DNA of 64,000 bases from Myxococcota bacterium (GCA_030065855.1 JASJCT010000015.1:16724-80723), one strand, 5' to 3'. Positions 46,955 to 62,874 are shown, numbered from the stretch's first letter. The notes: generated by a model from the letters alone, not told the origin. Translations and numbers: made by a program.

Positions 46955-48121
46955 TTATTTGAGCGCTTCGACTGAGGATGTGTCGTAATCCCGGTTGTAG
47001 CGAATCCTTTGGTGGGCCTCTTCTGAAAGGGACGTCTGACCGTTGAGGACCAATGACGCGACTTCCTCGCCTACCCCTGGGCCGAGCATGAAGCCCTGAC
47101 CGCACATCCCCACGGCCAGGGTCAACCCCTCGATTTCCAGGACGTTGTCGACAATCGGCACCCCATCCGGGGTCATGGGATAACAGCCGCGCCAGACGCG
47201 CCTCACGAGCAGGTTCTGCATCTTTGGTATCAATGAGATCATCCGCTGGGCCAAGATTGGGAGAAATTCGGATGAGCTCTCGCGATCCTGGCCGATGAAT
47301 AACTCCTTGGGCGTGTAGCAGAAGATGATTTGCCCCTCCGCGTTCTGGCCAAAATAGAAATTCGCGGTCTTTCCCTCTGGGCCAGGGCGCATGTCCACCA
47401 CCAGCGGGTTTAGAAAATGGGCCACTGGCGCGGTAATGCCCCCCTCGTGGGCCTCTGGTACCACTGGTATCTGAATCCCCAGGGCCTCCCCGTCCTCTGC
47501 AGCATCTGAACCAGTGGCGATGACCACGTGGGCTGTCTCGTATCGACCCTGATCCGTGACCACTGCCCGTATCCGGCCACCTTGTTGCTCGTACGCCACC
47601 ACCCTTTCGTTAAAGCGAAACTGAGCGCCACATGCCATGGCCGCCCGCATAAAGGCGGTCGGCACTTTGAGCGGTGACAGCTGGCCGTCATTGGGCGAGA
47701 AGGTACCGCCGCGCAAGCCTTCTCGGGTAATGCCCGGGATGATGTCTGCCATGGTATCTGCGTCCACCCAATCGATGTCGAGCTGGTAGCTCTTTTGTAT
47801 GGGCAGCAGTGCCTTGAGCGTCTTTTCGAACCCGGCGTCATAGACCGGGAAGGCATACCCGCCTGGCTTCCACCCCACATCCACGCCGTGGGTCTCTTTC
47901 CACGAGGACATCTGCTCGAGGCTGCGACTGCAGAGGATGATCTTTGCCGGATCCGAATGGGTCGCTCGAATGCCGCCAATGGCAGCCTTGTTATCCCCCT
48001 GACCCACGGCAGCGCGGCGATCGATGACCAGCACGCGGAGTCCCTGCTGGGCCAGGTTGTAGGCCGCAGGCACACCCACGCTGCCGCCCCCAACGACAAT
48101 GGCGTCAAATGATGTCGTCAT
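46955..48121 (-). CDS. FAD-dependent oxidoreductase, DAO family (beta subunit of opine-oxidase / sarcosine-oxidase / archaeal proline-dehydrogenase type)
   Basis: Start set at MTTSFDAIVVGGGSVGVPAAY (GxGxxG). It overlaps the stop of the upstream alpha-like gene by 17 nt. Confidence 0.75.
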   Translation of the reverse strand: MTTSFDAIVVGGGSVGVPAAYNLAQQGLRVLVIDRRAAVGQGDNKAAIGGIRATHSDPAKIILCSRSLEQMSSWKETHGVDVGWKPGGYAFPVYDAGFEKTLKALLPIQKSYQLDIDWVDADTMADIIPGITREGLRGGTFSPNDGQLSPLKVPTAFMRAAMACGAQFRFNERVVAYEQQGGRIRAVVTDQGRYETAHVVIATGSDAAEDGEALGIQIPVVPEAHEGGITAPVAHFLNPLVVDMRPGPEGKTANFYFGQNAEGQIIFCYTPKELFIGQDRESSSEFLPILAQRMISLIPKMQNLLVRRVWRGCYPMTPDGVPIVDNVLEIEGLTLAVGMCGQGFMLGPGVGEEVASLVLNGQTSLSEEAHQRIRYNRDYDTSSVEALK

Positions 48122-51100
48122 CCCGATCCTCCGTTTGGATAAAGGCGTAGAGGGGGGTCTCGGCAATGAGCGGTCGAATGGTCCCGGGCGTGACCTCTTT
48201 TGGCAAGACCCCCTCTTCGCGAAAGATGCGCTGCACGAGCGCAGTGCAGGTCTTGCCACCGCAGCCCCCCATGCTGGGCCGGGCCAGGGATTTGAGTTGA
48301 TTCAAGTCCCGCACGCCAGCCCGGATCTCCCGTACAATTTCGCTCTTTCGAATCCGCTCGCAGCGGCAGACAATCGGATCTTCATCGTCGTCGAGCTTCT
48401 CTGTTGCAAGGGGTACCGAGGGACCCCGAATACTAAAGCCGGCAACGTTGAGGCGATCTTCAAACGGCACTGCCACCAGTGCCAACTTGCGGCGATCCTG
48501 ATCCTCCCGCTCCCGCACGGCGACGAGCTGACCCTTGCCCAGGGGCAGGCCATCGATATCGGTCGTCAGCACGTCTGTGCCCAGGTTTATTTTCTCATTG
48601 CCAAACTCAACCGGCAGGGAGACCAGGGCCAGGTTTTTTTCTTTGTCGTAGTCCTCTGCCACCAGGACGATGGCCAAGCCTGGGCAGCGAACCACGCAAC
48701 TGCCGCACCCCAAGCAGCCGCCCGAGTACTCGGGCAAGCCCATGATGCCGCCCGGCATGGAGATCAGGCCGTGGGGACACGCGGCAACGCAGGGGTCGCA
48801 TGGAATTTCCTGTACGCAGCGAATGACCGGAAAGATGGGTTCGCCCCCCTTGGGCACACGCCACGCTGTGGTCTTGCCAGGCCGACTGCGCAGCACTGCA
48901 GCCAGGGATTCCCAATGTTCTGGAATATCAATGGGCACGCCGCGGTCCCGGGCCAGCCTGCGGCCAACCATGCGCCCGGAAAAAATGGCAGCCGAGGCCT
49001 CGGCCACCTCGTCTGAATCGCCAGCAGCAACCACGTTGAGACCGTATTCCCGGGCCTTGGTTAAGATCTCATCCACTGGCGCAAGGCCCACGGCAATGAG
49101 CAACGTGTCAGCTTCAAAGGTCTGCTCAGTACCTGAAATGGGCCTGCCTGTTTCATCGATTTCAGCAATGGTAACCCGCTCCAGCCGCCCGTTCCCAGAG
49201 GCCTTGATGACCGAGTGCCGGGTCCATATGGGCACGCCGAGGCGCTTGATCTTGTCCGCATGGACCTTGTACCCACCGCATTCCGGCAAGGCTTCGACCA
49301 GGCCCACCACATCGATACCTGCCTGCAGGGCGTGATAGGCGCCGATAAGCCCCACATTGCCGCCGCCCAGGACAAAGAGCTTCTTCGAGGTCGAGATCAA
49401 ATCCCGATTGACCAGGGTCTGGAATGCACCGGCACCGTAGATCCCCGGCAGGTCGCACCCTGGGAACGACAGGGCCTTTTCCCGGGCCCCCAGGGCGACG
49501 ATCAACGTCTCGGGGGTAACCAGTCGATAACCCTGGGGCGTTGAAATGCCCACTTTGCCGTCTCCAAACAATCCCAGGGCCGTGGCCCGGGTCCATACGC
49601 GCACACTGGGCAAGGCAGCCACGTCGTCGGCCAGGTTTCTGCCAATATCAATGCCGCGGATGCCGGCGTAGCAATCAGCTGCGGATCCGAAAAACCCATG
49701 GGTCTGGAGGGTGAGCTTGCCCCCGAGCTCGGGCTTGTCATCGACCACGAGCACCTCGATCCCCACCCGCCCGAGCTCAATGGCAGCAGAAAGACCGGCC
49801 GGACCGCCCCCTAGCACGAGCACGGGCACGGATATTTCTTTTGGAAATCCCATTTTCTCTGGCCCGCTTGCAGGGGGAAGTGGTGGCAGGCCGTCACAGC
49901 GCTCAACTGTCATGCCAGGTTCCACAGGCACCATGCAGGATTTGACCATGCGGCCGTTGGCCATCACTGAGCACTGGGAACACTGACCATTGGCGCAGAA
50001 GATACCCTGGGCACCCCCGTCCCGGTGGTGGTGGCCAAAAACAGAAATACCAGCTGCAAACAGGGCCGACGCGATCATCTCGCCCTTCTGAGCCGGCAGT
50101 GTCTCACCTTCAAATGTAAATGATATGGGATCACTGGCCGGCGGTGTCAAAATCGGATGGGATGTGATGCGCCGCTCCCCCACAGCCGGTGTGTCGGTTT
50201 TATCGGACGTCTTTGATTGTCTGAAAGACGCGTATTTCTGAGATGCGGTGGTGCGGTAGGTGGGCAAAAACGGTACCCCGACATCGAAATGGGGGTCGCC
50301 CCATGTGGTATCTCGATGCGCGGCGAGCGCTTCCTGTTCGAGCAGCCACCCCGCAATGGTGGCCGCATCTCCTGGCATGGCCATGGGCACGTCTTGGGGA
50401 AGTCGATGCACCAGGACGGTCGGTTGTTGCTGTGTTATTTTCTGCTGAAAAGCGCGGATACTGGAAACCGGCCCTTCCCGGCCAGGCGCTGGCTCTGCAA
50501 ACGCGACCCGACCCGGGCCTAGCCCGACCGCGCGCGCTACTTGCTCAACCCGTTCCACGACCTGCCGCGCATGGGCTTCAGCACCGGCCAACCCGCAGGT
50601 GGGTTCGTGACGGCCCAGAACGAGGACACCGGCATACCCCCGTGCCAATGCACCCAACAACACAGCCGGCCGGATCCCGCCAGCACACGGCAGCTCGAGG
50701 ATATCGACGCCATGGGGCAGCCGGGGCGATGTCGGCGCCTTAAGGGCGCTGCGCGGACATGCCACTGCGAGGACCCGGCCCGTATCCTCCACCGGGATGG
50801 GCGGCAACTGGGCAGGCGCTACCCGGGGTTGATCGATGGCCCCACAAGGACATGCTGCCGAGCAAACCCCACAGCCGCGGCAAGCCTTGGGATCTATCAC
50901 TGCTCTGGATCGACCGTCTTGTTGCAGAACAACCCGGGCCACGGAAAATGGGCAAGCTGTCTCGCACACCCCACAGGCGATGCATCGCAAGGGGTTCACC
51001 GTACAGATGGCTTGGGGAAATGTTCGGTCCCAAATCGACAGCTGCCCCGGGGTTCGGGTGGACTTGATATGGCCGGTGGGACAGATCTTCGCGCAAGCAC

Positions 51101-51626
51101 CGCATCCGATACATGCCTCAGGCGGATCGTCAGCTGGGGTTCCAACCGTTTTTTTCTCCCCGCGATGCATGCGGGCAATGGCACTGGTGGCATAAGTATC
51201 GCAGACCCGGGTACACAGGCCGCACAGAATGCAGGTTTCATCTGTGGCAGGGAATTGGGTGTCCCCCACCCCCATGGATGTGGCCAGGGCTTGGATCGCC
51301 GGCACCTCAGGGCATCTGGCCAGCAGCATCTTTACGACCATTTGCCTGTGGCGCAAGACCTCCTCAGTGGCAGTGAACACGACAATGTCTGCCTGGGCCG
51401 GGTAATTGCAGGAGGTAACCAGCTTTTTGCGGCCGTTCACTGCTACCTGGACGAGGCATAGGCGACACGCGCCCAAGGGTTCAAGTGCCTCGTGATGGCA
51501 CAGGGAGGGGATCTCAAGGCCGAGTCGGCTCGCCACATCGATCAGGGGCTCGTGCAACCGGGCCTGGGTCTTTAGCCCATCGACAGTTAATTCGACATGT
51601 TGTTCTTTGGTTTCTCTCGTCATCAT
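48105..51626 (-). CDS. multidomain iron-sulfur flavoprotein: NuoG-type 2Fe-2S + 4x[4Fe-4S] + MvhD/FlpD-like module fused to an opine-oxidase-A/HcnAB/proline-dehydrogenase-alpha-like unit
   Basis: Start set at MMTRETKEQHVELTVDG. Motifs read in order (1-4): (1) CHHEALEPLGACRLCLV. (2) CILCGLCTRVC, CIGCGACAKICP, CIACGVCETACP, CRGCGVCSAACP. (3) LELPCAGGIRPAVLLGALARGYAGVLVLG...TCG. (4) FTFEGETLPAQKGEMIASAL...CANGQCSQC. Motifs (5-7): (5) VLVLGGGPAGLSAA and FVLGGGNVGLIGA. (6) CDPCVAACP and CLGCGSCVVRCP. (7) BFD-like CRCERI...GGCGGKTC. Confidence 0.7.
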   Translation of the reverse strand: MMTRETKEQHVELTVDGLKTQARLHEPLIDVASRLGLEIPSLCHHEALEPLGACRLCLVQVAVNGRKKLVTSCNYPAQADIVVFTATEEVLRHRQMVVKMLLARCPEVPAIQALATSMGVGDTQFPATDETCILCGLCTRVCDTYATSAIARMHRGEKKTVGTPADDPPEACIGCGACAKICPTGHIKSTRTPGQLSIWDRTFPQAICTVNPLRCIACGVCETACPFSVARVVLQQDGRSRAVIDPKACRGCGVCSAACPCGAIDQPRVAPAQLPPIPVEDTGRVLAVACPRSALKAPTSPRLPHGVDILELPCAGGIRPAVLLGALARGYAGVLVLGRHEPTCGLAGAEAHARQVVERVEQVARAVGLGPGRVAFAEPAPGREGPVSSIRAFQQKITQQQPTVLVHRLPQDVPMAMPGDAATIAGWLLEQEALAAHRDTTWGDPHFDVGVPFLPTYRTTASQKYASFRQSKTSDKTDTPAVGERRITSHPILTPPASDPISFTFEGETLPAQKGEMIASALFAAGISVFGHHHRDGGAQGIFCANGQCSQCSVMANGRMVKSCMVPVEPGMTVERCDGLPPLPPASGPEKMGFPKEISVPVLVLGGGPAGLSAAIELGRVGIEVLVVDDKPELGGKLTLQTHGFFGSAADCYAGIRGIDIGRNLADDVAALPSVRVWTRATALGLFGDGKVGISTPQGYRLVTPETLIVALGAREKALSFPGCDLPGIYGAGAFQTLVNRDLISTSKKLFVLGGGNVGLIGAYHALQAGIDVVGLVEALPECGGYKVHADKIKRLGVPIWTRHSVIKASGNGRLERVTIAEIDETGRPISGTEQTFEADTLLIAVGLAPVDEILTKAREYGLNVVAAGDSDEVAEASAAIFSGRMVGRRLARDRGVPIDIPEHWESLAAVLRSRPGKTTAWRVPKGGEPIFPVIRCVQEIPCDPCVAACPHGLISMPGGIMGLPEYSGGCLGCGSCVVRCPGLAIVLVAEDYDKEKNLALVSLPVEFGNEKINLGTDVLTTDIDGLPLGKGQLVAVREREDQDRRKLALVAVPFEDRLNVAGFSIRGPSVPLATEKLDDDEDPIVCRCERIRKSEIVREIRAGVRDLNQLKSLARPSMGGCGGKTCTALVQRIFREEGVLPKEVTPGTIRPLIAETPLYAFIQTEDRDDDII

Positions 51627-51720
51627 ACTTCGCTCAACGCTTAACTTAGTGATTTCTATAACAGACGGCAAAACCGCAACCAAGTGTTAAAAAACCCTAG
51701 CGCGAGGAAGAGAGGAAGAA

Positions 51721-51749
51721 TTGACAAATGTTTTGATTGCACCTAGCAT
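51721..51749 (+). promoter_or_regulatory. candidate sigma-70-type promoter TTGACA-17 nt-TAGCAT for the peptide/rSAM operon
   Basis: Read directly: TTGACA 51721-51726, a 17-nt spacer, TAGCAT 51744-51749. GGAGG at 51765-51769 and ATG at 51776 follow. Confidence 0.35.
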
Positions 51750-51775
51750 GGCCAAAATCCTAAAGGAGGTGTGTG

Positions 51776-52039
51776 ATGACGGAACGCAAGAGCTATTCCC
51801 TTGTCTTCAGGTTTGAGGTGGAGGAGGATGTGGCGGAGAAACGCCTGGACGCCATTGCCGAAGAGATGGTCGCGCCGCTTCGCAAACTCGCGTCAAATCT
51901 AAAGGTCGAAACCCTTAAACAGACCTTTGGCAAGGAGATCGGCAACGTACGGCTGCGCGCCCTGCAGGAAGAGCTGGTCATTGAGAGCGGGGCAGCCAGC
52001 GGATACCAGGGCAAGCTCTGGGAAAAGGCCTGCTGCTGA
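51776..52039 (+). CDS. candidate RiPP precursor peptide (87 aa; helical acidic leader, C-terminal core ...SGAASGYQGKLWEKACC)
   Basis: GGAGG lies 6 nt upstream of the ATG. The stop is 14 nt before the radical SAM gene. The only Cys, Trp and late Tyr cluster in the last 12 residues, and the peptide ends in CC-stop. Confidence 0.6.
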   Translation: MTERKSYSLVFRFEVEEDVAEKRLDAIAEEMVAPLRKLASNLKVETLKQTFGKEIGNVRLRALQEELVIESGAASGYQGKLWEKACC

Positions 52040-52053
52040 CAGCCAGCGCGAAT

Positions 52054-53466
52054 ATGGAAATAGCTGTGCAGCAAATCCAGGGCCAGATGGGCTACACGCT
52101 CGCCCCTCACGCGGTCCTGACGGTGGGAGATCATCGCGTCATGATCTCACGCCTTTCCCGGGGTTGGGTGCTACTATCCCCGGGTGACTACCAAAGCCTC
52201 GTTGATTTCTTCGACGAACATACATCTGCTAAGCTAGACACAGAGAGTCGCCAGATCGCAGAGCGCCTGTACCGCCTCGGACTCGCGCTGTGTGATGGTA
52301 AGCTAGCAGAACACCTCACGCCGTCCATGCCGGCTTTTCCCGAGAGCCTGCTCATTAAAATGACAGGGCACTGCAACTACAACTGCGATTACTGTTACGA
52401 TCACTCAGAATCCAGACGCAAACAGGATGTGGATGTAGCCAGGATTGTAACCACGATAGATCCCATTCTCGATCAGACCGGTAAGCTCAATATCACGTTC
52501 CACGGCGGTGAGCCCCTGCTGCGGTTCAGCGCGATTTCACGCATTGTCGACCACTGTGCCGAGCGCCATGCTGACAAAGCCATTCGCTTTGCCATACAAA
52601 CCAACGGCGCTTTGCTGGACGACACAACAGTCGAATTTCTCGATCGTCATGACTTTAGCGTGGGCATCTCCCTGGACGGATCAACACCAGACACCAACCA
52701 CCATCGGGGCCCCAAGGCATTGGACCACTTCTGCAGGCTACTCGAGCAGTACCCCGCTTTTATGGAGAAGCGCTGTGGTGCGCTCTCGGTCATCTCCCAG
52801 GCCAACGTGCGCGCGCTGCCTGACTTTGCCCTGTGGCTCCAGGACCACGGAATCCGCGGCCTCTCCACAACTGTCCTGGACCCCACGGGCCGGGCAAAAG
52901 ATCTGAATCAGAGTATCGGGCCCCAAGAGATTACAGGGCTGTACGATGCCTGGCTGCAACTCGTCCGAGCCGAGCGTATCACCGACCTCAAAATACAAAA
53001 TTTATTGGCCTACATGGACAACCTGGCCTGCTTTGACCCACCCAATTTCTGTCAAAAGGGTCCCTGCGGCGCGGGCGGTGAGTTCCTCGTGCTCGACGCG
53101 GACGGCAGTTTTCGTGCCTGTGATTGCATCATCCACGACGCCTTTATTTTAGGAGATCATAAGTGTACGCTGGAGCAGGCACTGGACGCGCCGTCGAGAA
53201 GACGGGTGGTCGACCGACACGCCTGGCTGGTATCACATGGCCCCTGTGCTGACTGCCCGTGGATACACTTGTGTGGAGGCACCTGCGCGGCCAAGGCCCT
53301 TGGATGCGCTACGGACGAAAACGCCGTCTATCCCGTGGAGTGCGCGCTCAACAAGCACCTGTACCCCATCTTGCTCGAGGCCTATGCCAGCGAACCAGAG
53401 GGCGCCTTGTACCAATACTATCGCCGGCACTCAAAAGCGCGACAGCGGCAGAACCCAGTGGTTTGA
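52054..53466 (+). CDS. radical SAM / SPASM-domain peptide-modifying enzyme
   Basis: Radical SAM motif MTGHCNYNCDYCY (Cx3Cx2C, ~52372-52395). The SPASM signature is CGAGGEFLVLDADGSFRAC (C..Gx4C) plus CADCPWIHLCGGTC (Cx2Cx5Cx3C). A ~95-aa N-terminal extension before the cluster motif may be an RRE/PqqD-like domain. Confidence 0.85.
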   Translation: MEIAVQQIQGQMGYTLAPHAVLTVGDHRVMISRLSRGWVLLSPGDYQSLVDFFDEHTSAKLDTESRQIAERLYRLGLALCDGKLAEHLTPSMPAFPESLLIKMTGHCNYNCDYCYDHSESRRKQDVDVARIVTTIDPILDQTGKLNITFHGGEPLLRFSAISRIVDHCAERHADKAIRFAIQTNGALLDDTTVEFLDRHDFSVGISLDGSTPDTNHHRGPKALDHFCRLLEQYPAFMEKRCGALSVISQANVRALPDFALWLQDHGIRGLSTTVLDPTGRAKDLNQSIGPQEITGLYDAWLQLVRAERITDLKIQNLLAYMDNLACFDPPNFCQKGPCGAGGEFLVLDADGSFRACDCIIHDAFILGDHKCTLEQALDAPSRRRVVDRHAWLVSHGPCADCPWIHLCGGTCAAKALGCATDENAVYPVECALNKHLYPILLEAYASEPEGALYQYYRRHSKARQRQNPVV

Positions 53467-54254
53467 TGGGTAACGCAGCCGACACGCTCATCGACCGCAT
53501 TGCAGCCTCTCTTCCACTGGATTCCACATGCATCACTGACCTGCCCGAAGCCGCAAGCGTGGACTCCTTTGATCCAGCCGTGCACGCCAAAGCCTGGTGG
53601 TGTTATGGGGTTGCAGCGCGCGCTTCAGGAGCTCCCCTCATCGACGAGCAGACCTTTCTGAAGGGATATTTTAGGGCTTTTTGTGACTTCTACCTGGCTG
53701 CGGCCCAGGCGCGCGAGGGTGACGGTAGCCCCTTGGAGAGGGGCCTCCCTCCCATTGTCTGTACAGCCCACTTCCCCAGCTATCCGCTTTACATGCGCGC
53801 GTTTAGGGAACGCGGCGCTTGTGTCCTGATCAGTCGCCGGGCTACTTGGATGGGCGATGGATGGCTGCAATCCGTGCATGAAAAAGGGGCCTTGAGCGCA
53901 GTGACGCAGGCTGTCCAAAAGGGGCGATCCATTGTGGCGATGATCGACCATGCCTTCCCAACAACCAGTAATGCGCCCATCCCTTTTCTCGGTTTGCCTT
54001 GCGCCACGCCCATGGGCTTGTTTGCGCTGGCCTCGCGCATGTCTCTCGGTATGGGCCTGCTCGTACCAGGGAACAACAGTGAACCAGAGGTTGTTGATTA
54101 CCCTGCAACAGCCAACATGGTACCTGGAACACTGGCTGCGGCCATGCTTCGGGATCTCAGCCGGGTTATTATGAAGACCCCAGAGCGCTGGCTGCTCTGG
54201 CCAAATCTAAACCATCGCTGGGAGCAAGACGCAGATTTATTTGACCTGGACTGA
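53466..54254 (+). CDS. LpxL/HtrB-like (lipid A biosynthesis acyltransferase family) protein with degenerate HX4D motif
   Basis: The ATG overlaps the rSAM stop (TGATG). The family-like C-terminal block is PERWLLWPNLNHRW (compare the PxQYxWxHxRW pattern I recall for LpxL). AHFPSYPLY occupies the position where the family has HxGNWE. Confidence 0.55.
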   Translation: MGNAADTLIDRIAASLPLDSTCITDLPEAASVDSFDPAVHAKAWWCYGVAARASGAPLIDEQTFLKGYFRAFCDFYLAAAQAREGDGSPLERGLPPIVCTAHFPSYPLYMRAFRERGACVLISRRATWMGDGWLQSVHEKGALSAVTQAVQKGRSIVAMIDHAFPTTSNAPIPFLGLPCATPMGLFALASRMSLGMGLLVPGNNSEPEVVDYPATANMVPGTLAAAMLRDLSRVIMKTPERWLLWPNLNHRWEQDADLFDLD

Positions 54255-54309: not shown

Positions 54310-55785
54310 TTAAAGTATATTGAAATCCCACCTGAGCTTGGCCCAAACCCTATCGTGTCGCTTGGCACCGGAGAGCATGCCGACCTCGATGCCGGGCTGG
54401 TATGTAATAAAGCCCAGGCCGGCCTTGAGGCCGTCGAGGATGGTGTAGCTGACCGTGGCGCGGGCCAACCAACCGTGCTGGGCGTTCCAGCCGAAGAGGA
54501 TTCCAGCTAACGCCAGGGTCATGTCGCCGTCGAGCACGTCGTGGGTGTAGCGCAGGGCGATCGATGGCTCTTCCACTGGGAATAGGACGTCGGGCAGATC
54601 TTCCAAGAGCCAGCTCTTCTTGATTTCGAGAAAGAGCATGGTGTCCTTAAGGCCTGAGTAGGTGATGCCTAGCAAGCCGCCGATGGAGGCGGCTTGTTCG
54701 TCGGAGAGCTCGGGTTGAACCGCTTCCTGATCACCGGTGTTGTAGTTTCTATCCTTTTCGGCACTGATTTCCCACTTGAACAACCAGCTGTCTACAGGCC
54801 AGGCACCCGAATGGCCGACCATGATGTAGCGGTGATGGTTGAGTACGATGTCCGTGCTGCGATCGATGATGATGCCCGAGAGGAGCGCCTGGTAGTCCAA
54901 CTCGATCACCCCCTGCTGATCGAGTACCGAGGCAACGTAGAGGGCCAGGTCGATGCCCGGTCCTTTGTAACCCCAGCGCAAGAGTACCTGCTGGGTGTTC
55001 AGGCTGAACAGGGCCTGTTTGTGTTTGTACCAAACCGGAGTGGTGGAGAGAAACTCCACTACATCGTCGGGTAGAAAGGCCGGCAGCGGGCTGAACAGGC
55101 CAAATGGCGGCGGTCGGTAGCCAAAGTTCGATTCGTGGATCACCAGCGCCTCGATGCGATGATAGCCGACAAACAACCCGATACGGGTGGAGAGAACCGG
55201 CAGGCGTAAGTCGTCGAGATCGGCTAGCCCTGGTTCCCGCAAATCACGCGGGCTGGCCACATCTACTAAACTGACCATGTCCCCTTCTCCCCAAACCACA
55301 ATTTGGCGCCCTATGCTCAACTCCACCTCACCAAAGGTCACGGCCAGGTATGACTCCCGCACATCTAATAACCACTCATAAGCATCGAGGGTGGGTTGAT
55401 CGTAGCTGTCCCGCTGGTAGAGGTAGGCAACGTCGTACTCCCCATGGCCTGAAACAACCAGGCGCAAGATCTCCCCTTTGTACCGCAAGACCAGATCGAG
55501 GTTCTGGCGCCCCTTGGCAAAGGGATTGTCCTCGAACCGCTCGGTCCACAGTGCCCATTCGGTCCTGAAAAAGCCACCCAAACGCCAGCGTGATGGGTTT
55601 TCCCCGCCTGCGCTCTCTTCGATTCCGGCCATGACGTCGGCGGACACATCGGCAAAGCCCGCACTGTCCGCGTCTTCGCCCCACCCTTCCCCGTCACCCC
55701 AGTCGTCCTCCGAGGAGGAATCCTCTGCAGTTAGACTATTGTCAGCACAAATCAGCCCCGGAGAGAGTAACTCGGCAAGAAGCAC
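54310..55785 (-). CDS. DUF1302-family outer-membrane beta-barrel-like protein
   Basis: The block SIGRQIVVWGEGDMVSLVDVASPRDLREPG matches the DUF1302 RQxVxWGE signature. The body is long, beta-rich and aromatic, ending in ...RWDFNIL. The start codon is uncertain: GTG at 55785, and the signal peptide may begin upstream. Confidence 0.65.
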   Translation of the reverse strand: MLLAELLSPGLICADNSLTAEDSSSEDDWGDGEGWGEDADSAGFADVSADVMAGIEESAGGENPSRWRLGGFFRTEWALWTERFEDNPFAKGRQNLDLVLRYKGEILRLVVSGHGEYDVAYLYQRDSYDQPTLDAYEWLLDVRESYLAVTFGEVELSIGRQIVVWGEGDMVSLVDVASPRDLREPGLADLDDLRLPVLSTRIGLFVGYHRIEALVIHESNFGYRPPPFGLFSPLPAFLPDDVVEFLSTTPVWYKHKQALFSLNTQQVLLRWGYKGPGIDLALYVASVLDQQGVIELDYQALLSGIIIDRSTDIVLNHHRYIMVGHSGAWPVDSWLFKWEISAEKDRNYNTGDQEAVQPELSDEQAASIGGLLGITYSGLKDTMLFLEIKKSWLLEDLPDVLFPVEEPSIALRYTHDVLDGDMTLALAGILFGWNAQHGWLARATVSYTILDGLKAGLGFITYQPGIEVGMLSGAKRHDRVWAKLRWDFNIL

Positions 55786-55838
55786 GGCGCAGCACAGGGT
55801 CCGGGCGTGATTTCTATCTGTGATGGTGAAAGGCAGTG

Positions 55839-56675
55839 CTAGAGCCCTTTCTCCAGTCGCCGCTCGGTGAACTCCGCGTCGGTTACAGATGCCTGATTGT
55901 ATTTCAGGGAATGGTACATCATCACCGTGGTCGATTCGACTTTTCCATTTTTCAAGGTTCGCACGGTTAGTCTATGGGCTGTCCAGATGTCGTCTACTTT
56001 TCGAATGTCGTCGAATTTCATGTACTTGAGTTTCCGCCCTTCCTTGACCCATATCTTGGCTTGAATCGGCATCAGCTTGGACTTGCTGATCCAATAGTGG
56101 GACTTAAGATAACCGGTCTCCTTCTGCTCTTTGGCTGTTTTGGGTCTGGCCTCGATCAACCAGCAATCTTCATTGTCGACCTTCATGGACTGCTCGATCA
56201 TCTTGTAGTCATAGGCATCTATGTCCTTTTTCGTCATATCCGAGTAAGAGATATCAGTGCCCAGAAAGGCACCCGACTTGTCAGAAGTAGAGATACGAGT
56301 CGATTTGCGCAGACTGGGTAGATAGAGCCACTGATCGTCGTCCTTGGCCCCCTCATCATAGTCGATAGACAACAGTCCGGTATTGCGCATATCAGGAGGG
56401 CTCTCGAACAGCATCAACATCTTTCGTCCGCCGTTGAATTCAAGCGATTTCGAGTAGAGGACGCGTTCTCGTTTGCGACCCGAGCTGTCGATCAGGGTCA
56501 TCGACACTTTGGAGAGCACCTTGTCCCCATCATCCCGATCCTCCATCGCCTGCGCAATCTTGCGCGGATCAGATGTATTGGGATCTAGGGCTCGCGCCTC
56601 TGTGCTCATGGTGACCAAGGCCACTGTCAATCCACATCTAAACAAGAGAGCAGTAAATCCATAACTTTGTTTCAT
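55839..56675 (-). CDS. LolA-like outer-membrane lipoprotein-sorting protein family
   Basis: Signal peptide. Size (~250 aa mature) and sequence style match the LolA_like proteins found next to MMPL exporters. It begins 13 nt after the MMPL stop. Confidence 0.6.
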   Translation of the reverse strand: MKQSYGFTALLFRCGLTVALVTMSTEARALDPNTSDPRKIAQAMEDRDDGDKVLSKVSMTLIDSSGRKRERVLYSKSLEFNGGRKMLMLFESPPDMRNTGLLSIDYDEGAKDDDQWLYLPSLRKSTRISTSDKSGAFLGTDISYSDMTKKDIDAYDYKMIEQSMKVDNEDCWLIEARPKTAKEQKETGYLKSHYWISKSKLMPIQAKIWVKEGRKLKYMKFDDIRKVDDIWTAHRLTVRTLKNGKVESTTVMMYHSLKYNQASVTDAEFTERRLEKGL

Positions 56676-56688
56676 TCGATATTCCTTT

Positions 56689-59244
56689 CTACAAACGCTT
56701 TTCTCTCGGTTTGGATCGGTAGGCCAACCTCAGCAAGGCCGGTCCGACAATGAGATCGAAGAGAAGCGCAAAAATAATGGCCAACCCGGCCAGCGCACCG
56801 AACCGCGCCAGGGGATACATGGTTGCTGCCAGAAACACCAAGAAACCCATGACCAAAATGATGCTAGTGCTGGTCATGGCGCGCCCGGTATGGGAAAAGG
56901 CGTGATCAATAGCCGCATCCACATCGCCGTAGTCCGCATAATGAACCCTGAATTGATGGAGAAAGTGGATGGTGTCATCCACGGCAATACCGATGACGAT
57001 TGAAGCAATAATCAGATTGGCCGTATCCAGGGGAATCGAGGCAAAGCCCATGATCCCCATAACTGAAACCACGGGTAGCAGGTTGGGTACCATCGAAATC
57101 AACCCCAGCTTAATGTCTCGCAGCAATAAAACCATCACAATCGTAATGGCTATAAAAGCAACCCCAAAGCTTCGGATCAGATCCGATATTAACGCGCTGA
57201 CCACCGTAGACACGCAAAACACTGAACCGGTTGTCTTAATGATGGCTCTGTCACCAATAAACTCCTCAACCCCCTTGGCAATATGTGCGGTCAATGGCTT
57301 GTAAGACCAAGCGTCCATCCAATTGACGCGGATGGTCATCAAACTCTTCACAAAGTCGACGGTTGTCAGTCTTTTCAGTTGATCTGGAGCTGCATTTTCA
57401 AAGAGGGTAAACATATCGACCACACCGCGTTCTGTATCTGGAATCCGATAAAAGGCCTGATTCGACTCGTTAACCGCTCTCCAGCTCTCGCGGATCACGT
57501 CGAGCAGACTGGTGGTCGTACCCACAATGGGTTGCGTACTCTTTGGATCCTGATAAGCGCTGATGTGGTTTTCTAGTTTTTCAAGTTGTATCAGCAGATC
57601 GCGATCCTTGAGATTTTGATCTTCTTTGGCACTGATCAGCAACGCCACATTTGCCGTCCCACCCACATGTCGATCCATCTCGTCCATGGCCTGACGAATA
57701 TCCCGATCCTCGGGAATCCAGCTCAGGGCATCATGGTGCACCACCAGGGTTGTGGCCCCAGCGGCAACAATCAAGGTAAAGCCTGCTGAGACCCAAAGCG
57801 TCATTCGCCTGCGCAGATGCTGATTCGCCCCCTGTCCCGCACTTGGACGTGACAGATAGTTACAAAAATTCAAAAATCGATTGAGCAGGTCACGGCGAGT
57901 CTCACCTGGCTTGACACCCAACAGACTCTTGTTGTTGAACGAGAGCATCACCGGGAGGAAAACCAGCGAGTGGATCAGCGTCACGGCAATACCCAGTGCA
58001 CCAAATGTCCCCATATCGATGATCGCCCCCAGGGTTGCAAAGCGAAAGCTAATCAGCCCCACTGCCGTCGTTAACGTGGTGTAAAACACCGGAACACCGG
58101 TTGTGGATATGGCGTAGATGATCGCCTGCTGATTGGGGATTCCCCGACCGCGCCCATCTCGATACACCGACTGAATATGAACCGAGCCCCCCACGCCGAC
58201 GCAGGCCAAGAATGCGGGCAAGACATTGGTCAGCATGGTCATCGGCACGCCGGATATGGCCATCGCGCCGAGGGTCCACCCCGCTGACTGCCAGACCACC
58301 AACACCGGCCCGATAATGCCGAGGGGATGACGGAAAATCAGCGCCAGCACCAAGGTCATTACCGCCAGTGCAATCAGGGTCAGGCGATAGAAATCCTGCA
58401 ACATCATCTCGTTTAGAGATGCATTGAAGGCGGGCAATCCAGCCACGGAGATGTGAAATCCGTCGTGATGGTGTTTATCTGTAATCGCCACAACCTCGCG
58501 GAAGACGCGATCCAAATCTCTCTCATCTAGAAAATCGGTTCTGACGATGACCACCGAGTGCCGCCCCTCAGCCCCTACCACCTGCCCTACTAGGACCTCG
58601 TCGTTCAACACGCGCTGCTTCAACGCGGGCAGATCCGCTTTGGTGGGCCATTCGTCCAGCAGACCGGCCACCTCGAGCCCCCCGCCCTTCCATGCTGTCC
58701 GGCGAACATTGATCAATGAGATGATCTCTTCGACAATGGTGCTGCCGCCCTCATCTCCCCAACCTTCATCCCCGTCAAATCCCTCGAAACCAGCCGGATC
58801 ATTTGCAGTAGCAGCACCAACGGCATCTGACCCGTCATCAACAGGGCTTGCACGAAACGGATCGTCCACTTGCTTGGCACTTTTGCCTCGCCGTCGTTGC
58901 CCCAGGCTGTTGAGCTGCAGATCGATCACTGCTAAATCGTCGTGAAGCGCTTTCAACCGCTCCAGATAAGACATGGAAAAGACATCGCCTTCCACGAGTA
59001 TCTGGTAAATGTTGTCCTGGCCGAAGTCATCGTACAGCTCGTCGAGAACGATGATTTCGTCAGCTTTGTCCCCCATGAAGGCCTCGGTGGAATTGTCGAT
59101 GGTCAGCTTGTCCCAGGCCTGGTACCCCATAAAGCCGGTGATGGTGAAGTTGAGCACCAGAAAAATCCAGCGAAAGCGAAGCACGCATTCCCCCCAGCGT
59201 CTGAAAAAGGGATTCTGCGGAGCAGAATACGGATCGGTTGACAC
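56689..59244 (-). CDS. MMPL/RND-superfamily exporter
   Basis: 851 aa with a GTG start and two TM bundles. The SSD-type segment is IGIAVDDTIHFLHQF. The large first periplasmic loop carries an acidic insertion. Confidence 0.8.
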   Translation of the reverse strand: MSTDPYSAPQNPFFRRWGECVLRFRWIFLVLNFTITGFMGYQAWDKLTIDNSTEAFMGDKADEIIVLDELYDDFGQDNIYQILVEGDVFSMSYLERLKALHDDLAVIDLQLNSLGQRRRGKSAKQVDDPFRASPVDDGSDAVGAATANDPAGFEGFDGDEGWGDEGGSTIVEEIISLINVRRTAWKGGGLEVAGLLDEWPTKADLPALKQRVLNDEVLVGQVVGAEGRHSVVIVRTDFLDERDLDRVFREVVAITDKHHHDGFHISVAGLPAFNASLNEMMLQDFYRLTLIALAVMTLVLALIFRHPLGIIGPVLVVWQSAGWTLGAMAISGVPMTMLTNVLPAFLACVGVGGSVHIQSVYRDGRGRGIPNQQAIIYAISTTGVPVFYTTLTTAVGLISFRFATLGAIIDMGTFGALGIAVTLIHSLVFLPVMLSFNNKSLLGVKPGETRRDLLNRFLNFCNYLSRPSAGQGANQHLRRRMTLWVSAGFTLIVAAGATTLVVHHDALSWIPEDRDIRQAMDEMDRHVGGTANVALLISAKEDQNLKDRDLLIQLEKLENHISAYQDPKSTQPIVGTTTSLLDVIRESWRAVNESNQAFYRIPDTERGVVDMFTLFENAAPDQLKRLTTVDFVKSLMTIRVNWMDAWSYKPLTAHIAKGVEEFIGDRAIIKTTGSVFCVSTVVSALISDLIRSFGVAFIAITIVMVLLLRDIKLGLISMVPNLLPVVSVMGIMGFASIPLDTANLIIASIVIGIAVDDTIHFLHQFRVHYADYGDVDAAIDHAFSHTGRAMTSTSIILVMGFLVFLAATMYPLARFGALAGLAIIFALLFDLIVGPALLRLAYRSKPREKRL

Positions 59245-59286: not shown

Positions 59287-62200
59287 TCACGTGCATACAC
59301 CTGTAGATTCGCCGCTGAATTCACATGGCACACAGTGTTCACCCAAGTTACATGTCGTCCTCGTAAACAACAGTTTCTCCAGCGTGTCGAGGTAGCATCC
59401 CGGAACGCACGCGCCAGGATCACCAGCGGCAACGCCGCCTGCCGTACAAGTTGGAAATCCATTGACAGCTGGATCCAAAATGATCGAATTCGGCGCACAG
59501 AGGTGGTTTTCCTGAGTGCAACTATCCTGGACCACCTGATCGCCTAATTCGGCGGGAATAAGTTCACTGGGCACACAGGTACCGATCTGGACCCCTTCCT
59601 CTTCACAGCACTTGTCAAACACCACCGGCAGATGCTGCGGCCCCGGATCCCCAGGGAGATGACACGCGCCGGTTGCCTCACCGGTAAACGGATCGAAACA
59701 AGGGGAACAACGGCTGTTCTCCGGGCATCCAGTTTCCGGTAACAGAGCCCCTTGAGTCGCCACCCAAGGTAGGCAGTCGGGCAGGCAACGTCCTTCTAGA
59801 TCGGCAAAAGAGGTGCACGTCGTCGGAATGAAACCATCATCCTGGAAATCGTCTGGGACACAGAGCAATCCCTGGTCTGGCGAACACACATCATCGCCAA
59901 GCATGGTCTGTTGCTCTGCTGAGATGAGCGCCTTAGGCAGGCAGCGTCCCTCACTGTCACAACAGGTTTCAAACACCACTGGCGGGCGGACCGGCCCTGA
60001 ATCCCCGGGGAATTCGCAAGCACCAGTGGCAATACCGGTATAGAGATCGTAGCAGGGAGCGCACAAATGATACTCAGGACAGATATCCTGGGGCAACCAT
60101 CCTGCCTGTTCGGCAATGGCCGGGAGGCACTCTGGCAAACAGCGCCCTTCGGCATCGATGATGGAATAGCAGTGCGACGGTGCTGTCTCCTCGACGATAA
60201 AATCCGGTGCACAGAGCAGGTCCTGCCCCTGCGCACAGGTATGCTCACTGAGCTGTGCCTGCTGATCGACCGAAACCAGTGTATCTGGCACACAACGGCC
60301 CAATCCCTCACAGCAGCGGTCAAAGATCACAGCCGGTTCTGTCGGACCGGGATCACTGCCCATCTCGCAGATCTCCGTATTGTCTCCTGAAAATGGATCG
60401 TAGCACGGTGCGCAGCGCTCACCTGCTTCACAGACATCCTGTACCAAAAAGGCCTGTCCAGCAGCGGCGGGCAAGCACTTGGCTACACAGCGTCCCTCGG
60501 CAGCCAAAATTCCGTGACAAGTGGTCGGAATAAAGTCGTCCACTAGAAAATCATCGGGAACACACAAGAGACCATAGCCACTGGTGCAGACATCCAGGCC
60601 AAGATGGGGGTGTTGATCCTCGGGGATCATCGCTTGGGGCACGCAGGTACCTGCCTCATCGCAGCATGCCTCGAAGACTACCGGCTCCAGGGCAGGTCCC
60701 GGATCTCCGCCCATGCGGCATACCCCTGTGTCCTCGCCGGTAATTGGATCGTAACACGGTGCACACCGATAAAACGGCGGGCACAAATCCTGTGGCAGGT
60801 CGTCTTGCTGCGCTGCAATTTCCGGCAGGCAAATCGGTGCACACCGGCCCTCACCGCCATAGGGCAACCGACACATCTCAAGCACAAAGTCCGCTTCCAA
60901 AAACGCGTCCGGTACACAGCGCAGGGTCTCATCCCCAGTACAGGTATCAGAGCCCAGGCTCTCCAGGTCCTGTTGGGGAATGAGGTCCTTGGGGATGCAG
61001 GTGCCAAGCTCCCCGCAGCAGGCATCGAACACCACGGCAGGCTCTGTAGGTCCTGGATCATCCCCGAGCTCGCAAAGTCCGGTGGCATCTCCTGTGAATG
61101 GGTCATAGCAAGGTGCACACAGGTGGTGCGCAGGGCAAATATCTTGATAGAGGGAATCCTGTTCCTCGGCGATTTCCGGCAGACAGGTCGATATGCAGCG
61201 GCCCTCGGCCTCTAGTACGCCGTGGCAAGTGGTGGGGACAAAGCCGTCCTCCATGAAATCGTGGGGCACGCAGAGCAATCCCTGATTGGCTGTACACGCG
61301 TCGAGGCCGAGGTGGGACTGTTGATCACCTGAAATCAGCCATTCGGGCACACAACTTCCCAAACCATTGCAACAGGCCTCAAACACCACTGGTTCCAAGG
61401 TCGGACCGGGATCGCCCCCCAACTCACAAAGCCCCGTCGATATCCCGTCCGTGGGATCATAACAGGGCGCACAGCGATAGTTTGCAGGACAGATGTCCTG
61501 GGGGAGATCGTCCTGTTGGCCTGCCACATCCGGCAGGCAGATCGGGACACAGCGACCTTCTGCACCCAAGGTGGACCGGCACATATCCAGCACAAAATCT
61601 TCCTCGAAAAAATCGTCGGGAGCGCAAAGCAGCGCTTCATCCCCTTCGCAGGTATCCGGGCCGAGATGATCCAGCTCATTTTCGGATATCAAGCCTGCTG
61701 GAATGCAGCTACCCCCCCCATTGCAACAGGTATCGAACGTCACTGCCGGTTCAGTCGGGCCAGTATCCTCGCCCATCTCGCAGAGCCCGGTGAGGTCGCC
61801 GGAAAAGGGATCATAGCACGGCGCACACAGGTATTTTTCAGGGCATATATCTTGGTACAATAGATCCTTATTTTTTGCCATCTCAGGAAGGCATTCGGGT
61901 ACGCAGCGCCCCTCAGCGCCAAGGACCCCGTGACAAGTGGTCGGAATGAATCCCGTTTCTATAAAGTCGTCAGGCACGCAGAGCAGGCCCTGGTTTTCCG
62001 GACACATGTCGATACCTAGATGCTCCTGCTGATTTTGGGGAATCAATGACAGGGGCACACAGCTGCCCAAGTCGTCACAGCACGTCTCGAAAAGTACCGG
62101 CTCCATCAAAGGCCCTGGATCACCCCCCAGCTCGCACAGGCCGGTGGATTCGCCATCGAACGGATCGTAGCAAGGAGCACAGCGGTAGTAGGCCGGACAG

Positions 62201-62874
62201 ACATCCTGCGGCAGGCCGTCCATCTGATCCGCCACTTCCGGCAGACAAATGGGCACACATCGTCCCTCAGCCCTCTGCGTTGAACGACAGGAGGCGAGCA
62301 CGAAATCATCCTGTCGAAATTCTTCTGGCATGCAGAGCATCGGCCCATCACCGTCACAGGTATCCACCCCAAGGCGAGATTGATGCTCGGCTGGGACCAG
62401 CTCGGTTGGGATACACCATCCCTGTTCATGGCAACATTTGTCAAAGGTCACGGCTGGCTCAGCCGGCCCTGTGTCATTGCCCAAATCGCACAGCTCGGTC
62501 GTGTTTCCGTCAAATGGATCGTAACAAGGGGCGCAGAGGTAATGTTCCGGACACTGATCCTGAGGAAGCAGGTCCTCCTGCTCAGCAATATCGGGCAGGC
62601 AACTCGGCAGACAGCGGCCTTCGGCATCCAGCGTTGAACGACAAGACGCGGGCACATAACTATCGAACGCGACAAATTCGGTCGGAAGACACAAGTAGTC
62701 CACATCGCAGCTATCTCGATTGAGAAACGCAACGTTTTCGTCCGGTACCAAGCTGCTGGGCAAGCAACTCCCCAAATCGTGACAGCAAGACGGTAGGGGT
62801 TCGCCACGACTTGACTCCCCGCACCCGAGCAAACATCCGATAAATATTGTAAAGCAACACCGCCAAAACATCAT
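59287..62874 (-). CDS. giant lipoprotein composed of ten ~115-aa cysteine-rich repeats (12 Cys per repeat)
   Basis: Start set at MMFWRCCFTIFIGCLLGCGESS (lipobox LLGC), with GGAGG upstream. The repeat consensus is CCxxxGxCxP..L.P......LGxDxC.....LCxPDxF...xF...C......EGRCxPxCLP.......LxQDxCP..YxCAPCYDPFxGxxTGxCExGxDPGPxEPxVxF. The tenth unit is truncated. Confidence 0.8.
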   Translation of the reverse strand: MMFWRCCFTIFIGCLLGCGESSRGEPLPSCCHDLGSCLPSSLVPDENVAFLNRDSCDVDYLCLPTEFVAFDSYVPASCRSTLDAEGRCLPSCLPDIAEQEDLLPQDQCPEHYLCAPCYDPFDGNTTELCDLGNDTGPAEPAVTFDKCCHEQGWCIPTELVPAEHQSRLGVDTCDGDGPMLCMPEEFRQDDFVLASCRSTQRAEGRCVPICLPEVADQMDGLPQDVCPAYYRCAPCYDPFDGESTGLCELGGDPGPLMEPVLFETCCDDLGSCVPLSLIPQNQQEHLGIDMCPENQGLLCVPDDFIETGFIPTTCHGVLGAEGRCVPECLPEMAKNKDLLYQDICPEKYLCAPCYDPFSGDLTGLCEMGEDTGPTEPAVTFDTCCNGGGSCIPAGLISENELDHLGPDTCEGDEALLCAPDDFFEEDFVLDMCRSTLGAEGRCVPICLPDVAGQQDDLPQDICPANYRCAPCYDPTDGISTGLCELGGDPGPTLEPVVFEACCNGLGSCVPEWLISGDQQSHLGLDACTANQGLLCVPHDFMEDGFVPTTCHGVLEAEGRCISTCLPEIAEEQDSLYQDICPAHHLCAPCYDPFTGDATGLCELGDDPGPTEPAVVFDACCGELGTCIPKDLIPQQDLESLGSDTCTGDETLRCVPDAFLEADFVLEMCRLPYGGEGRCAPICLPEIAAQQDDLPQDLCPPFYRCAPCYDPITGEDTGVCRMGGDPGPALEPVVFEACCDEAGTCVPQAMIPEDQHPHLGLDVCTSGYGLLCVPDDFLVDDFIPTTCHGILAAEGRCVAKCLPAAAGQAFLVQDVCEAGERCAPCYDPFSGDNTEICEMGSDPGPTEPAVIFDRCCEGLGRCVPDTLVSVDQQAQLSEHTCAQGQDLLCAPDFIVEETAPSHCYSIIDAEGRCLPECLPAIAEQAGWLPQDICPEYHLCAPCYDLYTGIATGACEFPGDSGPVRPPVVFETCCDSEGRCLPKALISAEQQTMLGDDVCSPDQGLLCVPDDFQDDGFIPTTCTSFADLEGRCLPDCLPWVATQGALLPETGCPENSRCSPCFDPFTGEATGACHLPGDPGPQHLPVVFDKCCEEEGVQIGTCVPSELIPAELGDQVVQDSCTQENHLCAPNSIILDPAVNGFPTCTAGGVAAGDPGACVPGCYLDTLEKLLFTRTTCNLGEHCVPCEFSGESTGVCT

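Follow-up and report, generated by a model that had tools for sequence, protein, structure and literature searches.

A conserved three-gene cassette of a small peptide, a radical SAM/SPASM enzyme and an LpxL/PatA-like protein is probably an undescribed peptide-maturation family

Introduction

Maturation of peptides by radical S-adenosylmethionine (SAM) enzymes with a SPASM region is well known, and uncharacterised radical SAM families that act on ribosomally synthesised, post-translationally modified peptides (RiPPs) abound. In a stretch of 64,000 nucleotides from a Myxococcota bacterium (GCA_030065855.1 JASJCT010000015.1:16724-80723), which in its full length we call the window, we analysed a cassette of three genes: a small open reading frame (ORF), a radical SAM/SPASM gene, and a gene for a protein related to the acyltransferases LpxL, LpxM and PatA. 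This cassette probably represents a radical SAM/SPASM family for peptide maturation that has not been described, in which the precursor motif is new and the partner has the lysophospholipid acyltransferase (LPLAT) fold.

Several described systems share some of these features. The triceptide systems (XyeB/YhhB, GrrM/OscB, FxsB) are likewise minimal cassettes in which a small precursor adjoins a radical SAM/SPASM enzyme, and as in those systems the aromatic-X-X motif of the core, here W-x-K, would permit an aryl-to-C-beta cross-link. However, the radical SAM enzyme of the cassette lies far under every cyclophane-maturase cut-off (56.5-81 versus 310-445 bits), and its peptide has one motif rather than repeats, followed by a conserved Cys or Thr-Cys. 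We know of no triceptide cluster with an LpxL/PatA-fold partner. Darobactin and dynobactin are also made by a single radical SAM/SPASM enzyme (DarE, DynA) from a short C-terminal core, and the Bacillus and Mycobacterium members of the present family carry exactly L-W-S-K; as cited in PMC10288494, the second ring of darobactin is a Trp-Lys C-C link within W-S-K. In contrast to these systems, the cassette has neither the W-x-W ether motif nor a DarBCD-type exporter, and it has the Cys and the acyltransferase-like gene in addition.

The closest curated and structural relatives of the radical SAM enzyme are PapB and CteB/ScfB, which share with it an N-terminal domain, a radical SAM core and a SPASM region; CteB was matched with 83 bits in a sequence search of the PDB and was also the top Foldseek match. 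Unlike SCIFF, the precursor of the cassette is not Cys-rich (1-2 Cys), and the Cys is dispensable for retention of the radical SAM gene. The third protein resembles LpxL/LpxM and PatA in its fold, its PF03279 match and its catalytic His, and it also has the 'DQ' motif Asp and an F-x-G...TPxG element, but it is ~40-60 residues shorter, has no N-terminal hydrophobic anchor, and has Pro in place of the Glu/Asp at +5. It forms a small family of its own, always next to the radical SAM and peptide genes, and its substrate is presumably a peptide and not a glycolipid. Should it acylate the peptide, a ribosomal lipopeptide would result, as are the selidamides, lipolanthines and goadvionins. To our knowledge, the lipidated RiPPs described so far use acyltransferases of the GNAT type or linked to polyketide or fatty acid synthases, and none uses the LPLAT (LpxL/PatA) fold or pairs with a radical SAM/SPASM enzyme that cross-links Trp.

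Results and Discussion

The cassette in the window

The features of the cassette, all on the + strand, are as follows.

51721..51749, +, sigma-70-like promoter candidate, TTGACA-17-TAGCAT, 10/12 positions matching
51765..51769, +, Shine-Dalgarno sequence GGAGG, 6 nt ahead of the ATG of the small ORF, found by sequence inspection
51776..52039, +, putative precursor gene, 87 aa plus stop, with a leader of ~75 aa and then the core
52001..52036, +, core region GYQGKLWEKACC, containing the family motif G-Y-x-x-[KR]-[LIM]-W-x-K-[AT]-[TC]-C
52054..53466, +, predicted radical SAM/SPASM peptide maturase gene, 470 aa, 14 nt past the small ORF
52054..52338, +, N-terminal domain of the radical SAM enzyme (residues 1-95), candidate leader-binding domain resembling a RiPP recognition element (RRE)
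52372..52395, +, CX3CX2C radical SAM cluster motif CNYNCDYC (residues 107-114)
53065..53343, +, SPASM auxiliary-cluster region, C338-X12-G351-X4-C356, C398-X2-C401-X5-C407-X3-C411, and C430
53466..54254, +, gene for the LpxL/LpxM/PatA-fold acyltransferase homologue, 262 aa, PF03279
53769..53771, +, His102 of HFP(E/S)YP, aligned with the catalytic His of the canonical HxGNW[E/D]
53946..53948, +, Asp161 (M-x-D-Y/H), invariant, at the aligned position of the Asp in the canonical 'DQ' motif

The original prediction had described most of this arrangement, and the promoter-like element with GGAGG before the 87-residue ORF, the 470-residue enzyme 14 nt further on with CNYNCDYC and a complete SPASM pattern, and the overlap with a lipid-A-acyltransferase-family protein were all found in place. 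The promoter candidate is no proof alone because sites of this type are not above their count in shuffled sequence (2 in the region versus 1.2 +/- 1.2). The stop codon of the radical SAM gene overlaps the ATG of the third gene in TGATG at 53464-53468, from which the third gene is predicted to be translationally coupled to the radical SAM gene. In the public annotation the three products are a 'hypothetical protein', a 'radical SAM protein' and a 'hypothetical protein'.

The small ORF belongs to a conserved precursor family

DNA around homologues of the radical SAM gene was taken from genomes, metagenomes and assemblies, and the flanks were read for small ORFs. At 19 member loci, spread over Myxococcota, Beta- and Gammaproteobacteria, Bacillus and Mycobacterium kansasii/innocens, the small ORF adjoining the radical SAM gene terminates in W-x-K/R/L-[A/T/V]-[T/C]-C and the third gene comes after, in agreement with the expectation that the homologues would keep both an adjacent small ORF ending in W-x-K...C and the acyltransferase. 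The fuller motif at the C-terminus is (GY-x-x-K/R-L)-W-x-K-[A/T]-[T/C]-C, and every member locus of the radical SAM family has beside this gene a small ORF with a recognisably similar C-terminus. Examples of these C-termini are given below.

Window, Myxococcota metagenome-assembled genome: GYQGKLWEKACC
L161: GYESKLWEKACC
L163, Ca. Thiodiazotropha: GYNGKLWEKATC
L164, Bacillus sp. DX1.1: GYASRLWSKATCQ
L003, Mycobacterium innocens: YGYEHRLWSKATCG
L001, Duganella: GYDSRLWEKTTCA
L002, Variovorax: NAMWTKTTCDIGGH
L004, Lysobacterales: GYESRIWEKATC, followed by a 47-aa tail

Two of the 19 loci, L171 (GGYEGRLWAKATC) and L172 (AGYDTRLWEKATC), were fetched later as a prospective test, and both have the third gene and the Cys. 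When 17 precursors from other loci were aligned, Trp was the sole invariant residue and Cys was near-invariant; the leaders (65-75 residues) also align and are well conserved, with a beta-like K-I-x-V-x-L-x-V-x-V-D/E segment, a helix-like segment and a second short conserved segment. The leader of the window precursor had been called acidic, which holds only mildly (14 D/E versus 12 K/R). As for the triplets W-E-K and Y-Q-G proposed for its core, W-x-K is kept, with Lys at W+2 in most members and Arg, Leu or Gln in a few, whereas Y-Q-G is not conserved and only the G-Y is found, in part of the family. Of the terminal Cys-Cys, the last residue is kept, and most members have Thr at the penultimate position.

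The pattern W.[KRL][ATV][TC]C had 23 matches among the 13,899 ORFs of all fetched loci and the window, and 21 of these lie directly beside a radical SAM homologue. With the recurrence of the C-terminal motif, this shows that the small ORF is a gene and that its core motif is under strong selection. The arrangement of the cassette is far beyond chance. A word-based homologue search with the 87-residue ORF matched nothing except itself, and alone it would have suggested an ORF that is not conserved; the neighbourhoods of the radical SAM homologues showed the opposite. This search result and the promoter-like match, no better than shuffles, are what could be said for a chance juxtaposition in which the small ORF is no gene and the three ORFs are functionally unrelated. 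We give that explanation practically no credence, and regard it as refuted by the conservation data: the motif and its place beside the radical SAM gene recur in at least 19 loci across phyla, and the radical SAM and third genes overlap here and are fused in some organisms. The genes flanking the cassette vary between loci, which points to the three genes as the functional unit.

Between 0 and 48 residues follow the conserved Cys. Some members have tails of 30-48 residues past it, and other precursors end at the Cys. In L004:4602-4988, L005:4629-4988, L165:3496-3993, L025:247-702 and L059:4370-4735 the tail has 38-48 residues and is charged and heptad-like (coiled-coil-looking), for example KATNDPRERLEDPVTEIERLSEQAKRLESEIASLHANLNKLKNAQGR. 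In M. innocens (L003:4938-7498), with the same proteins in M. kansasii, the precursor is placed after the acyltransferase-like gene and not before the radical SAM gene. The precursor and third protein of M. kansasii were seen on 141 contigs, hence the cassette appears fixed in this opportunistic pathogen.

The radical SAM/SPASM enzyme lies outside the curated families

The window enzyme has the CX3CX2C motif and a PF04055 match of 58.6 bits (cut-off 29.5), which place it in the radical SAM superfamily, and the Pfam Radical_SAM/Fer4_12 matches begin at residue 101, so that ~95-100 residues precede the core, close to the extension of ~95 residues proposed from the sequence. The seven-Cys SPASM pattern CX9-15GX4C...CX2CX5CX3C...C is complete, although PF13186 (SPASM) gave no match to this protein at E<=0.1. 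Searches with the protein gave ~75 full-length homologues of 34-51% identity from very diverse bacteria, with the N-terminal 95 residues included, and the CX3CX2C and SPASM Cys are invariant across 28 aligned homologues. A profile of the family separates its members (435-677 bits) from all other radical SAM/SPASM proteins of the fetched loci (at most 327 bits). A scan of metagenomes mostly returned unrelated radical SAM/SPASM loci, with L081-L087 alone as family members, and a plasmid search with the enzyme had no match.

NCBIfam curated cut-offs were applied to all three window proteins. Neither the precursor nor the third protein had any NCBIfam match, and no model reached its cut-off with the radical SAM enzyme, for which the scores were as follows.

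PapB (NF047865), ranthipeptide maturase: 125 bits, cut-off 340, the best NCBIfam score
ScfB/CteB, SCIFF maturase (TIGR03974): 100.3 bits, cut-off 425
Anaerobic sulfatase-maturating enzyme, anSME (TIGR03942): 102.7 bits, cut-off 349
YhhB (NF041707), cyclophane maturase: 76.8 bits, cut-off 445
GrrM/OscB (TIGR04261): 61.5 bits, cut-off 310
FxsB (TIGR04269): 56.5 bits, cut-off 370
AmcB (NF041718): 81 bits, cut-off 425
DynA (NF041298): 86.5 bits, cut-off 450
DarW (NF041300): 57.4 bits, cut-off 650

As all scores are far under the cut-offs, we rejected membership of any curated maturase family. A role as sulfatase maturase or another non-peptide role was likewise rejected, given the anSME score and the conserved dedicated small ORF.

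The AlphaFold2 (AF2) model of the enzyme has a predicted local distance difference test score (pLDDT) of 90, and its Foldseek matches are CteB (top), anSME, ChlB, TigE, SkfB and SuiB; in the model it has the three-domain build of CteB, TigE and SuiB. An RRE is a PqqD-like winged helix of three strands and three helices that binds the leader. In the window enzyme the N-terminal domain is conserved family-wide, including W38 (28-sequence alignment), and residues 14-80 are modelled as four beta-strands and two helices. PF05402, the PqqD-like RRE, had no match in the protein. The Foldseek alignments to the RRE-bearing CteB, TigE and SuiB are full-length (465-475 columns). The domain may be an RRE, and as a candidate it is consistent with the model.

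The Trp goes with the radical SAM enzyme and the Cys with the third gene

At six loci with a radical SAM enzyme of the family or of a sister clade, a six-frame search of the fetched 7-11 kb did not find the third gene. Their precursors keep the Trp and have no Cys near it.

L166: GYAGRLWALHI, Cys-less
L007: WGQVWAKAWFAIGF (...VWAKAWFAIGF), Cys-less
L013 (same as L084): WGQLHGQVWGQITF (...VWGQITF), Cys-less
L086: GWSKGLW, Cys-less
L009: GWQKAGADP, Cys-less
L020: DWPKSIPQGC, with a distal Cys

A Cys at W+4 or W+5 is found at all of the 22 loci that have a readable precursor and a third gene supported by a hidden Markov model (HMM) or Pfam, and at 0/6 of the loci without the gene (Fisher test ~3e-6, a naive value that ignores phylogeny). 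In a neighbour-joining tree of the radical SAM proteins the loci without the gene occupy at least three separate positions, so that the gene and the Cys were lost together repeatedly. The trio occurs again, with Cys at W+4, in a distant Planctomycete clade (radical SAM score ~300 bits), whose precursors end in ...LWTRACG (L010), ...VWDKLC (L016) and ...IWDKFC (L017). The third genes of L010 and L016 exceed the PF03279 cut-off; L008, L025 and L059 look alike, with weaker support for the third protein. From these comparisons, the invariant Trp goes with the radical SAM enzyme, and the Cys with its preceding Thr/Cys goes with the LpxL/PatA-like protein.

This distribution bears on the possibility that the cassette makes a thioether peptide of the sactipeptide or ranthipeptide type, in which the Cys sulfur would be linked to a carbon of Trp, Lys or Thr and the LpxL-like protein would have an accessory or later tailoring role. 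The two thioether maturases PapB and the SCIFF maturase lead the NCBIfam comparison, the best solved-structure match is CteB, and the Cys stands 4-5 residues from the invariant Trp wherever the third gene occurs. However, those scores are far under the cut-offs of 340 and 425, and clear orthologues of the radical SAM enzyme (435-604 bits) adjoin the Cys-less precursors of L166, L007, L013 and L086, therefore the Cys cannot be essential to the radical SAM reaction. As the Cys tracks the third gene rather than the radical SAM gene, we consider a thioether product improbable, and the reading of the terminal Cys-Cys as thioether donors in the original prediction was corrected: the residue behaves as the partner of the acyltransferase-like gene rather than as an obligatory thioether donor for the radical SAM enzyme.

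The Cys-less sister clade (L007:4606-8649; L086:231-6146; L013:3317-5054) has Gly-Gly type leaders (..DLISGSGG.., ..ISGGN..), Trp-rich cores (WGQVWAKAWFAIGF, GWSKGLW) and no LpxL-like gene. A C39-peptidase ABC exporter (in L086) and an M61-like peptidase of ~560 residues, conserved and secreted, also belong to it, and the clade looks like a conventional secreted Trp-cross-linked RiPP system.

Two natural fusions, P0188 (L169:829-2976) and P0178 (L170:5001-6701), join the N-terminal domain of the radical SAM family and a SPASM region without CX3CX2C to an LpxL-like domain. The proteins encoded next to them (L169:2-811 and L170:3173-3880, in the latter case with a Trypsin_2 peptidase between) have 235-269 residues, carry a twin-arginine-like signal (RREF[IL]KLA), and are His-rich at the C-terminus, which ends in ...EHTC or ...EPTC. 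This suggests that entire exported proteins with a terminal T-C can be substrates of the acyltransferase-like domain. The two enzymes of the cassette probably work as a complex on one peptide.

The third protein has the LpxM/PatA fold and most of its active site

The third gene follows the radical SAM gene in the 19 member loci with a readable precursor and also in L083, where the precursor is cut off at the contig end. The window protein matches PF03279 with 26.6 bits (gathering cut-off 22.3), the match being confined to its C-terminal half, and 9/12 family members match it independently. A word-based search gave 3 relatives only and a HMMER profile search was needed, which found among 1.84 billion representative proteins 96 clusters at E<=1e-10, nearly all of ~250 residues; ordinary LpxL-like proteins of ~300 residues rank after these. 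Names in the public records of the family are 'hypothetical protein', 'radical SAM/SPASM domain-containing protein', and the automatic 'LpxL/LpxP family acyltransferase' and 'phosphatidylinositol mannoside acyltransferase'.

When the PDB was searched by sequence, the profile of the third protein and its C-terminal fragment gave marginal PatA matches (E ~0.2) or noise, and it was the fold search that settled the LpxM/PatA fold. The AF2 model, predicted from a 4-sequence alignment, has a mean pLDDT of 83, and its significant Foldseek neighbours in the PDB are solely Acinetobacter LpxM (5KN7, 5KNK) and Mycobacterium smegmatis PatA (5F2Z and others), with probability 1.0 and TM ~0.6; the next matches have E > 0.04. 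In the alignment His102 stands at the catalytic His of canonical PF03279 proteins and Asp161 at the Asp of their 'DQ' motif. The His is present in 77/82 aligned representatives of the family, Asp161, W242 and W245 are each kept in 89/89, and the F-x-G...TPxG element is conserved. As judged from these alignments, the third protein is a small specialised LpxL/PatA offshoot that has kept most of the active site and not the canonical acid: the acid at +5 of HX4(D/E) is absent, the sequence being H-F-P-(E/S)-Y-P with Pro at +5 in 74/82 representatives. Asp161 could take over its role.

Perhaps the protein retains only the fold and serves as a scaffold, a substrate chaperone or an immunity factor. 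This would fit the Pro at +5 and the loss of the His in L168, in 5/82 representatives and apparently also in the distant homologues of L025/L059, and the fusions to a degenerate radical SAM enzyme show that catalytically dead modules are tolerated in the system. On the other hand, the His (94%), Asp161 (100%), the TPxG element and W242/W245 make up a conserved active-site pattern, and PatA pairs its His with a distal Glu instead of the +5 acid, so that loss of this acid need not abolish activity. The strict tie to a nucleophilic Cys/Thr pair also suggests chemistry on those residues, and we think it rather unlikely that the protein is non-catalytic. In the divergent member L168, whose precursor ends in ...VWSRTTCC and whose third protein has Gln in place of the catalytic His, the gene immediately upstream (L168:2262-2816) codes for an HFCD flavoprotein (PF02441, to which the LanD-type Cys decarboxylases belong).

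Proposed maturation route and fate of the product

We favour, with moderate confidence, a self-contained cassette of the RiPP type in which the radical SAM enzyme makes a cross-link at the Trp and the LpxL/PatA-like protein then acts on the Cys/Thr. The 87-residue product has a long leader conserved in the family and a C-terminal core G-Y-x-x-K/R-L-W-x-K-A/T-T/C-C. The radical SAM/SPASM enzyme would bind the leader through its extra N-terminal domain and use the 5'-deoxyadenosyl radical to cross-link the invariant Trp. The most likely product would have a Trp(aryl)-C-beta bond between the Trp and the second residue after it (W-x-K), following the logic of three-residue cyclophanes and of darobactin's W-S-K ring; this is the most economical choice because Trp is the sole invariant residue and W+2 is Lys in most members. 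From the co-variation, the fold and the gene fusions we infer that the LpxL/PatA-fold protein would then have the adjacent Cys (and Thr/Cys) of this peptide as its target. His102, perhaps paired with Asp161, would move an acyl group from acyl-ACP (acyl carrier protein) or acyl-CoA (coenzyme A) onto the thiol of the Cys or a side chain of the Thr/Cys, and the end product would be a cross-linked, lipidated peptide. In this scheme the chemistry, that is the type of cross-link and any acylation, is put forward on the strength of the conserved cassette and of the residue-enzyme associations observed.

Several observations weigh against the scheme. The known acceptors of the LpxL/PatA-fold family are sugar or lipid hydroxyls, not peptides. 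The +5 acid is missing and a few members (L168; 5/82 representatives) have lost the His as well. The residue at W+2 is not always Lys: L167 has Leu there, and both L168 and L010 have Arg. The nearest curated relatives of the radical SAM enzyme form thioethers. The absence of the third gene at the six loci rests on flanks of 3-5 kb, and L020 is without the gene yet carries a distal C-terminal Cys. The relevance of the acid is indicated by LpxM, in which E127A is listed as a catalytic-residue substitution (title of PDB 5KNK).

The more specific idea, that an LPLAT-fold enzyme of the LpxL/PatA kind was recruited to act on a ribosomal peptide, either by S- or O-acylation or through a peptidyl-Cys thioester, is offered tentatively, and we would not yet rely on it. 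In a first version (a), the conserved Cys/Thr beside the Trp cross-link made by the radical SAM enzyme would be S- or O-acylated. In a second and more radical version (b), a peptidyl-Cys thioester arising from an N-to-S acyl shift at T/C-C would serve as the acyl donor; the residues past the Cys would be released, with closure of the peptide or its transfer, for instance to the conserved Lys. The variable 0-48 residues past the Cys would be explained by this thioester version. Either version, if true, would mean a new RiPP class with M. kansasii among its carriers.

When the flanks of the loci with the third gene were read, no conserved dedicated protease or exporter was found. Leader removal and export thus would use other functions, or the product stays in the cell. 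The latter case, in which the same two enzymes act but the cassette matures an intracellular peptide, a protein-derived cofactor or a protein tail and the product remains in or on the cell, would have a logic comparable to mycofactocin, pyrroloquinoline quinone (PQQ) and the QhpC subunit of quinohemoprotein amine dehydrogenase. It would also suit the long and well conserved leader (65-75 residues), the 30-48 residues that some members have past the Cys, the 235-269-residue twin-arginine-like-signal proteins ending in T-C beside the fusions, and the fixation of the cassette in M. kansasii (141 contigs). However, the Gly-Gly leaders, C39-peptidase ABC exporter and M61-like peptidase of the Cys-less sister clade are hallmarks of secreted peptides, and neither a redox partner nor a client enzyme is kept in the neighbourhood; overall we regard a retained product of this kind as unlikely, while giving it some weight. 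For the product of the favoured three-gene route, a lipid tail would suggest a membrane-bound location.

The locus had been said to fit no recognised RiPP class, and this still stands: no NCBIfam model was matched at its cut-off, public names are generic, and literature searches were negative. In the literature covered, from which subscription journals are largely missing, there was no account of the motif or of a radical SAM RiPP cluster with an LpxL/PatA-type enzyme, and a large survey of radical SAM RiPPs mentions no acyltransferase partner. We did not find described there a precursor family whose W-x-K-x-(T/C)-C core is sharply conserved, a radical SAM clade apart from every curated maturase family, or an LpxL/PatA-fold partner that is obligate and is present or absent together with one Cys of the peptide. 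Acylation of the peptide by the partner, if it takes place, would open a new way to ribosomal lipopeptides and add a new class of substrates to the fold of the lipid A and phosphatidylinositol mannoside (PIM) acyltransferases. The cassette has three genes in ~2.5 kb and is present in the culturable Duganella fentianensis, Variovorax sp. IB41 and Bacillus sp. DX1.1 and in the pathogen M. kansasii, and is therefore directly testable by heterologous expression and mass spectrometry.

Neighbouring genes

Just downstream of the cassette of Bacillus sp. DX1.1 (L164:6789-9419) there is an apparent second peptide-modification region, with an 89-residue ORF ending in ...YYAGDTCCSIE, a nitroreductase-family gene, a 79-residue W/D/N-rich ORF (..SDSWHNSWNKDGDFTDTWGKG..) and a further radical SAM gene. 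On a metagenomic contig (L171:3088-5082) an eCIS_core (extracellular contractile injection system) gene is directly downstream of the cassette.

In the window, a 1223-residue ORF without a Pfam match at E<=1e-5 occupies 59287-62958 (-), and genes for a DUF1302 protein, a LolA-like/DUF1329 protein and an MMPL/RND-type transporter with a sterol-sensing-like domain converge on the cassette (54310-59244, -). These last three genes look like an export set for a hydrophobic compound. A functional tie to the cassette was rejected since they are not kept at other loci, and a link of this set to a lipidated product is only a thought. On the other side, and divergent from the cassette, 46955-51683 (-) encodes a 1192-residue multi-domain iron-sulfur flavoprotein (two Fer2_4, 4Fe-4S dicluster, FlpD, Pyr_redox_2 and BFD-like domains). 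It is followed by an FAD oxidoreductase of the DAO family, and the pair resembles a sarcosine/opine-oxidase-like or heterodisulfide-reductase-related complex.

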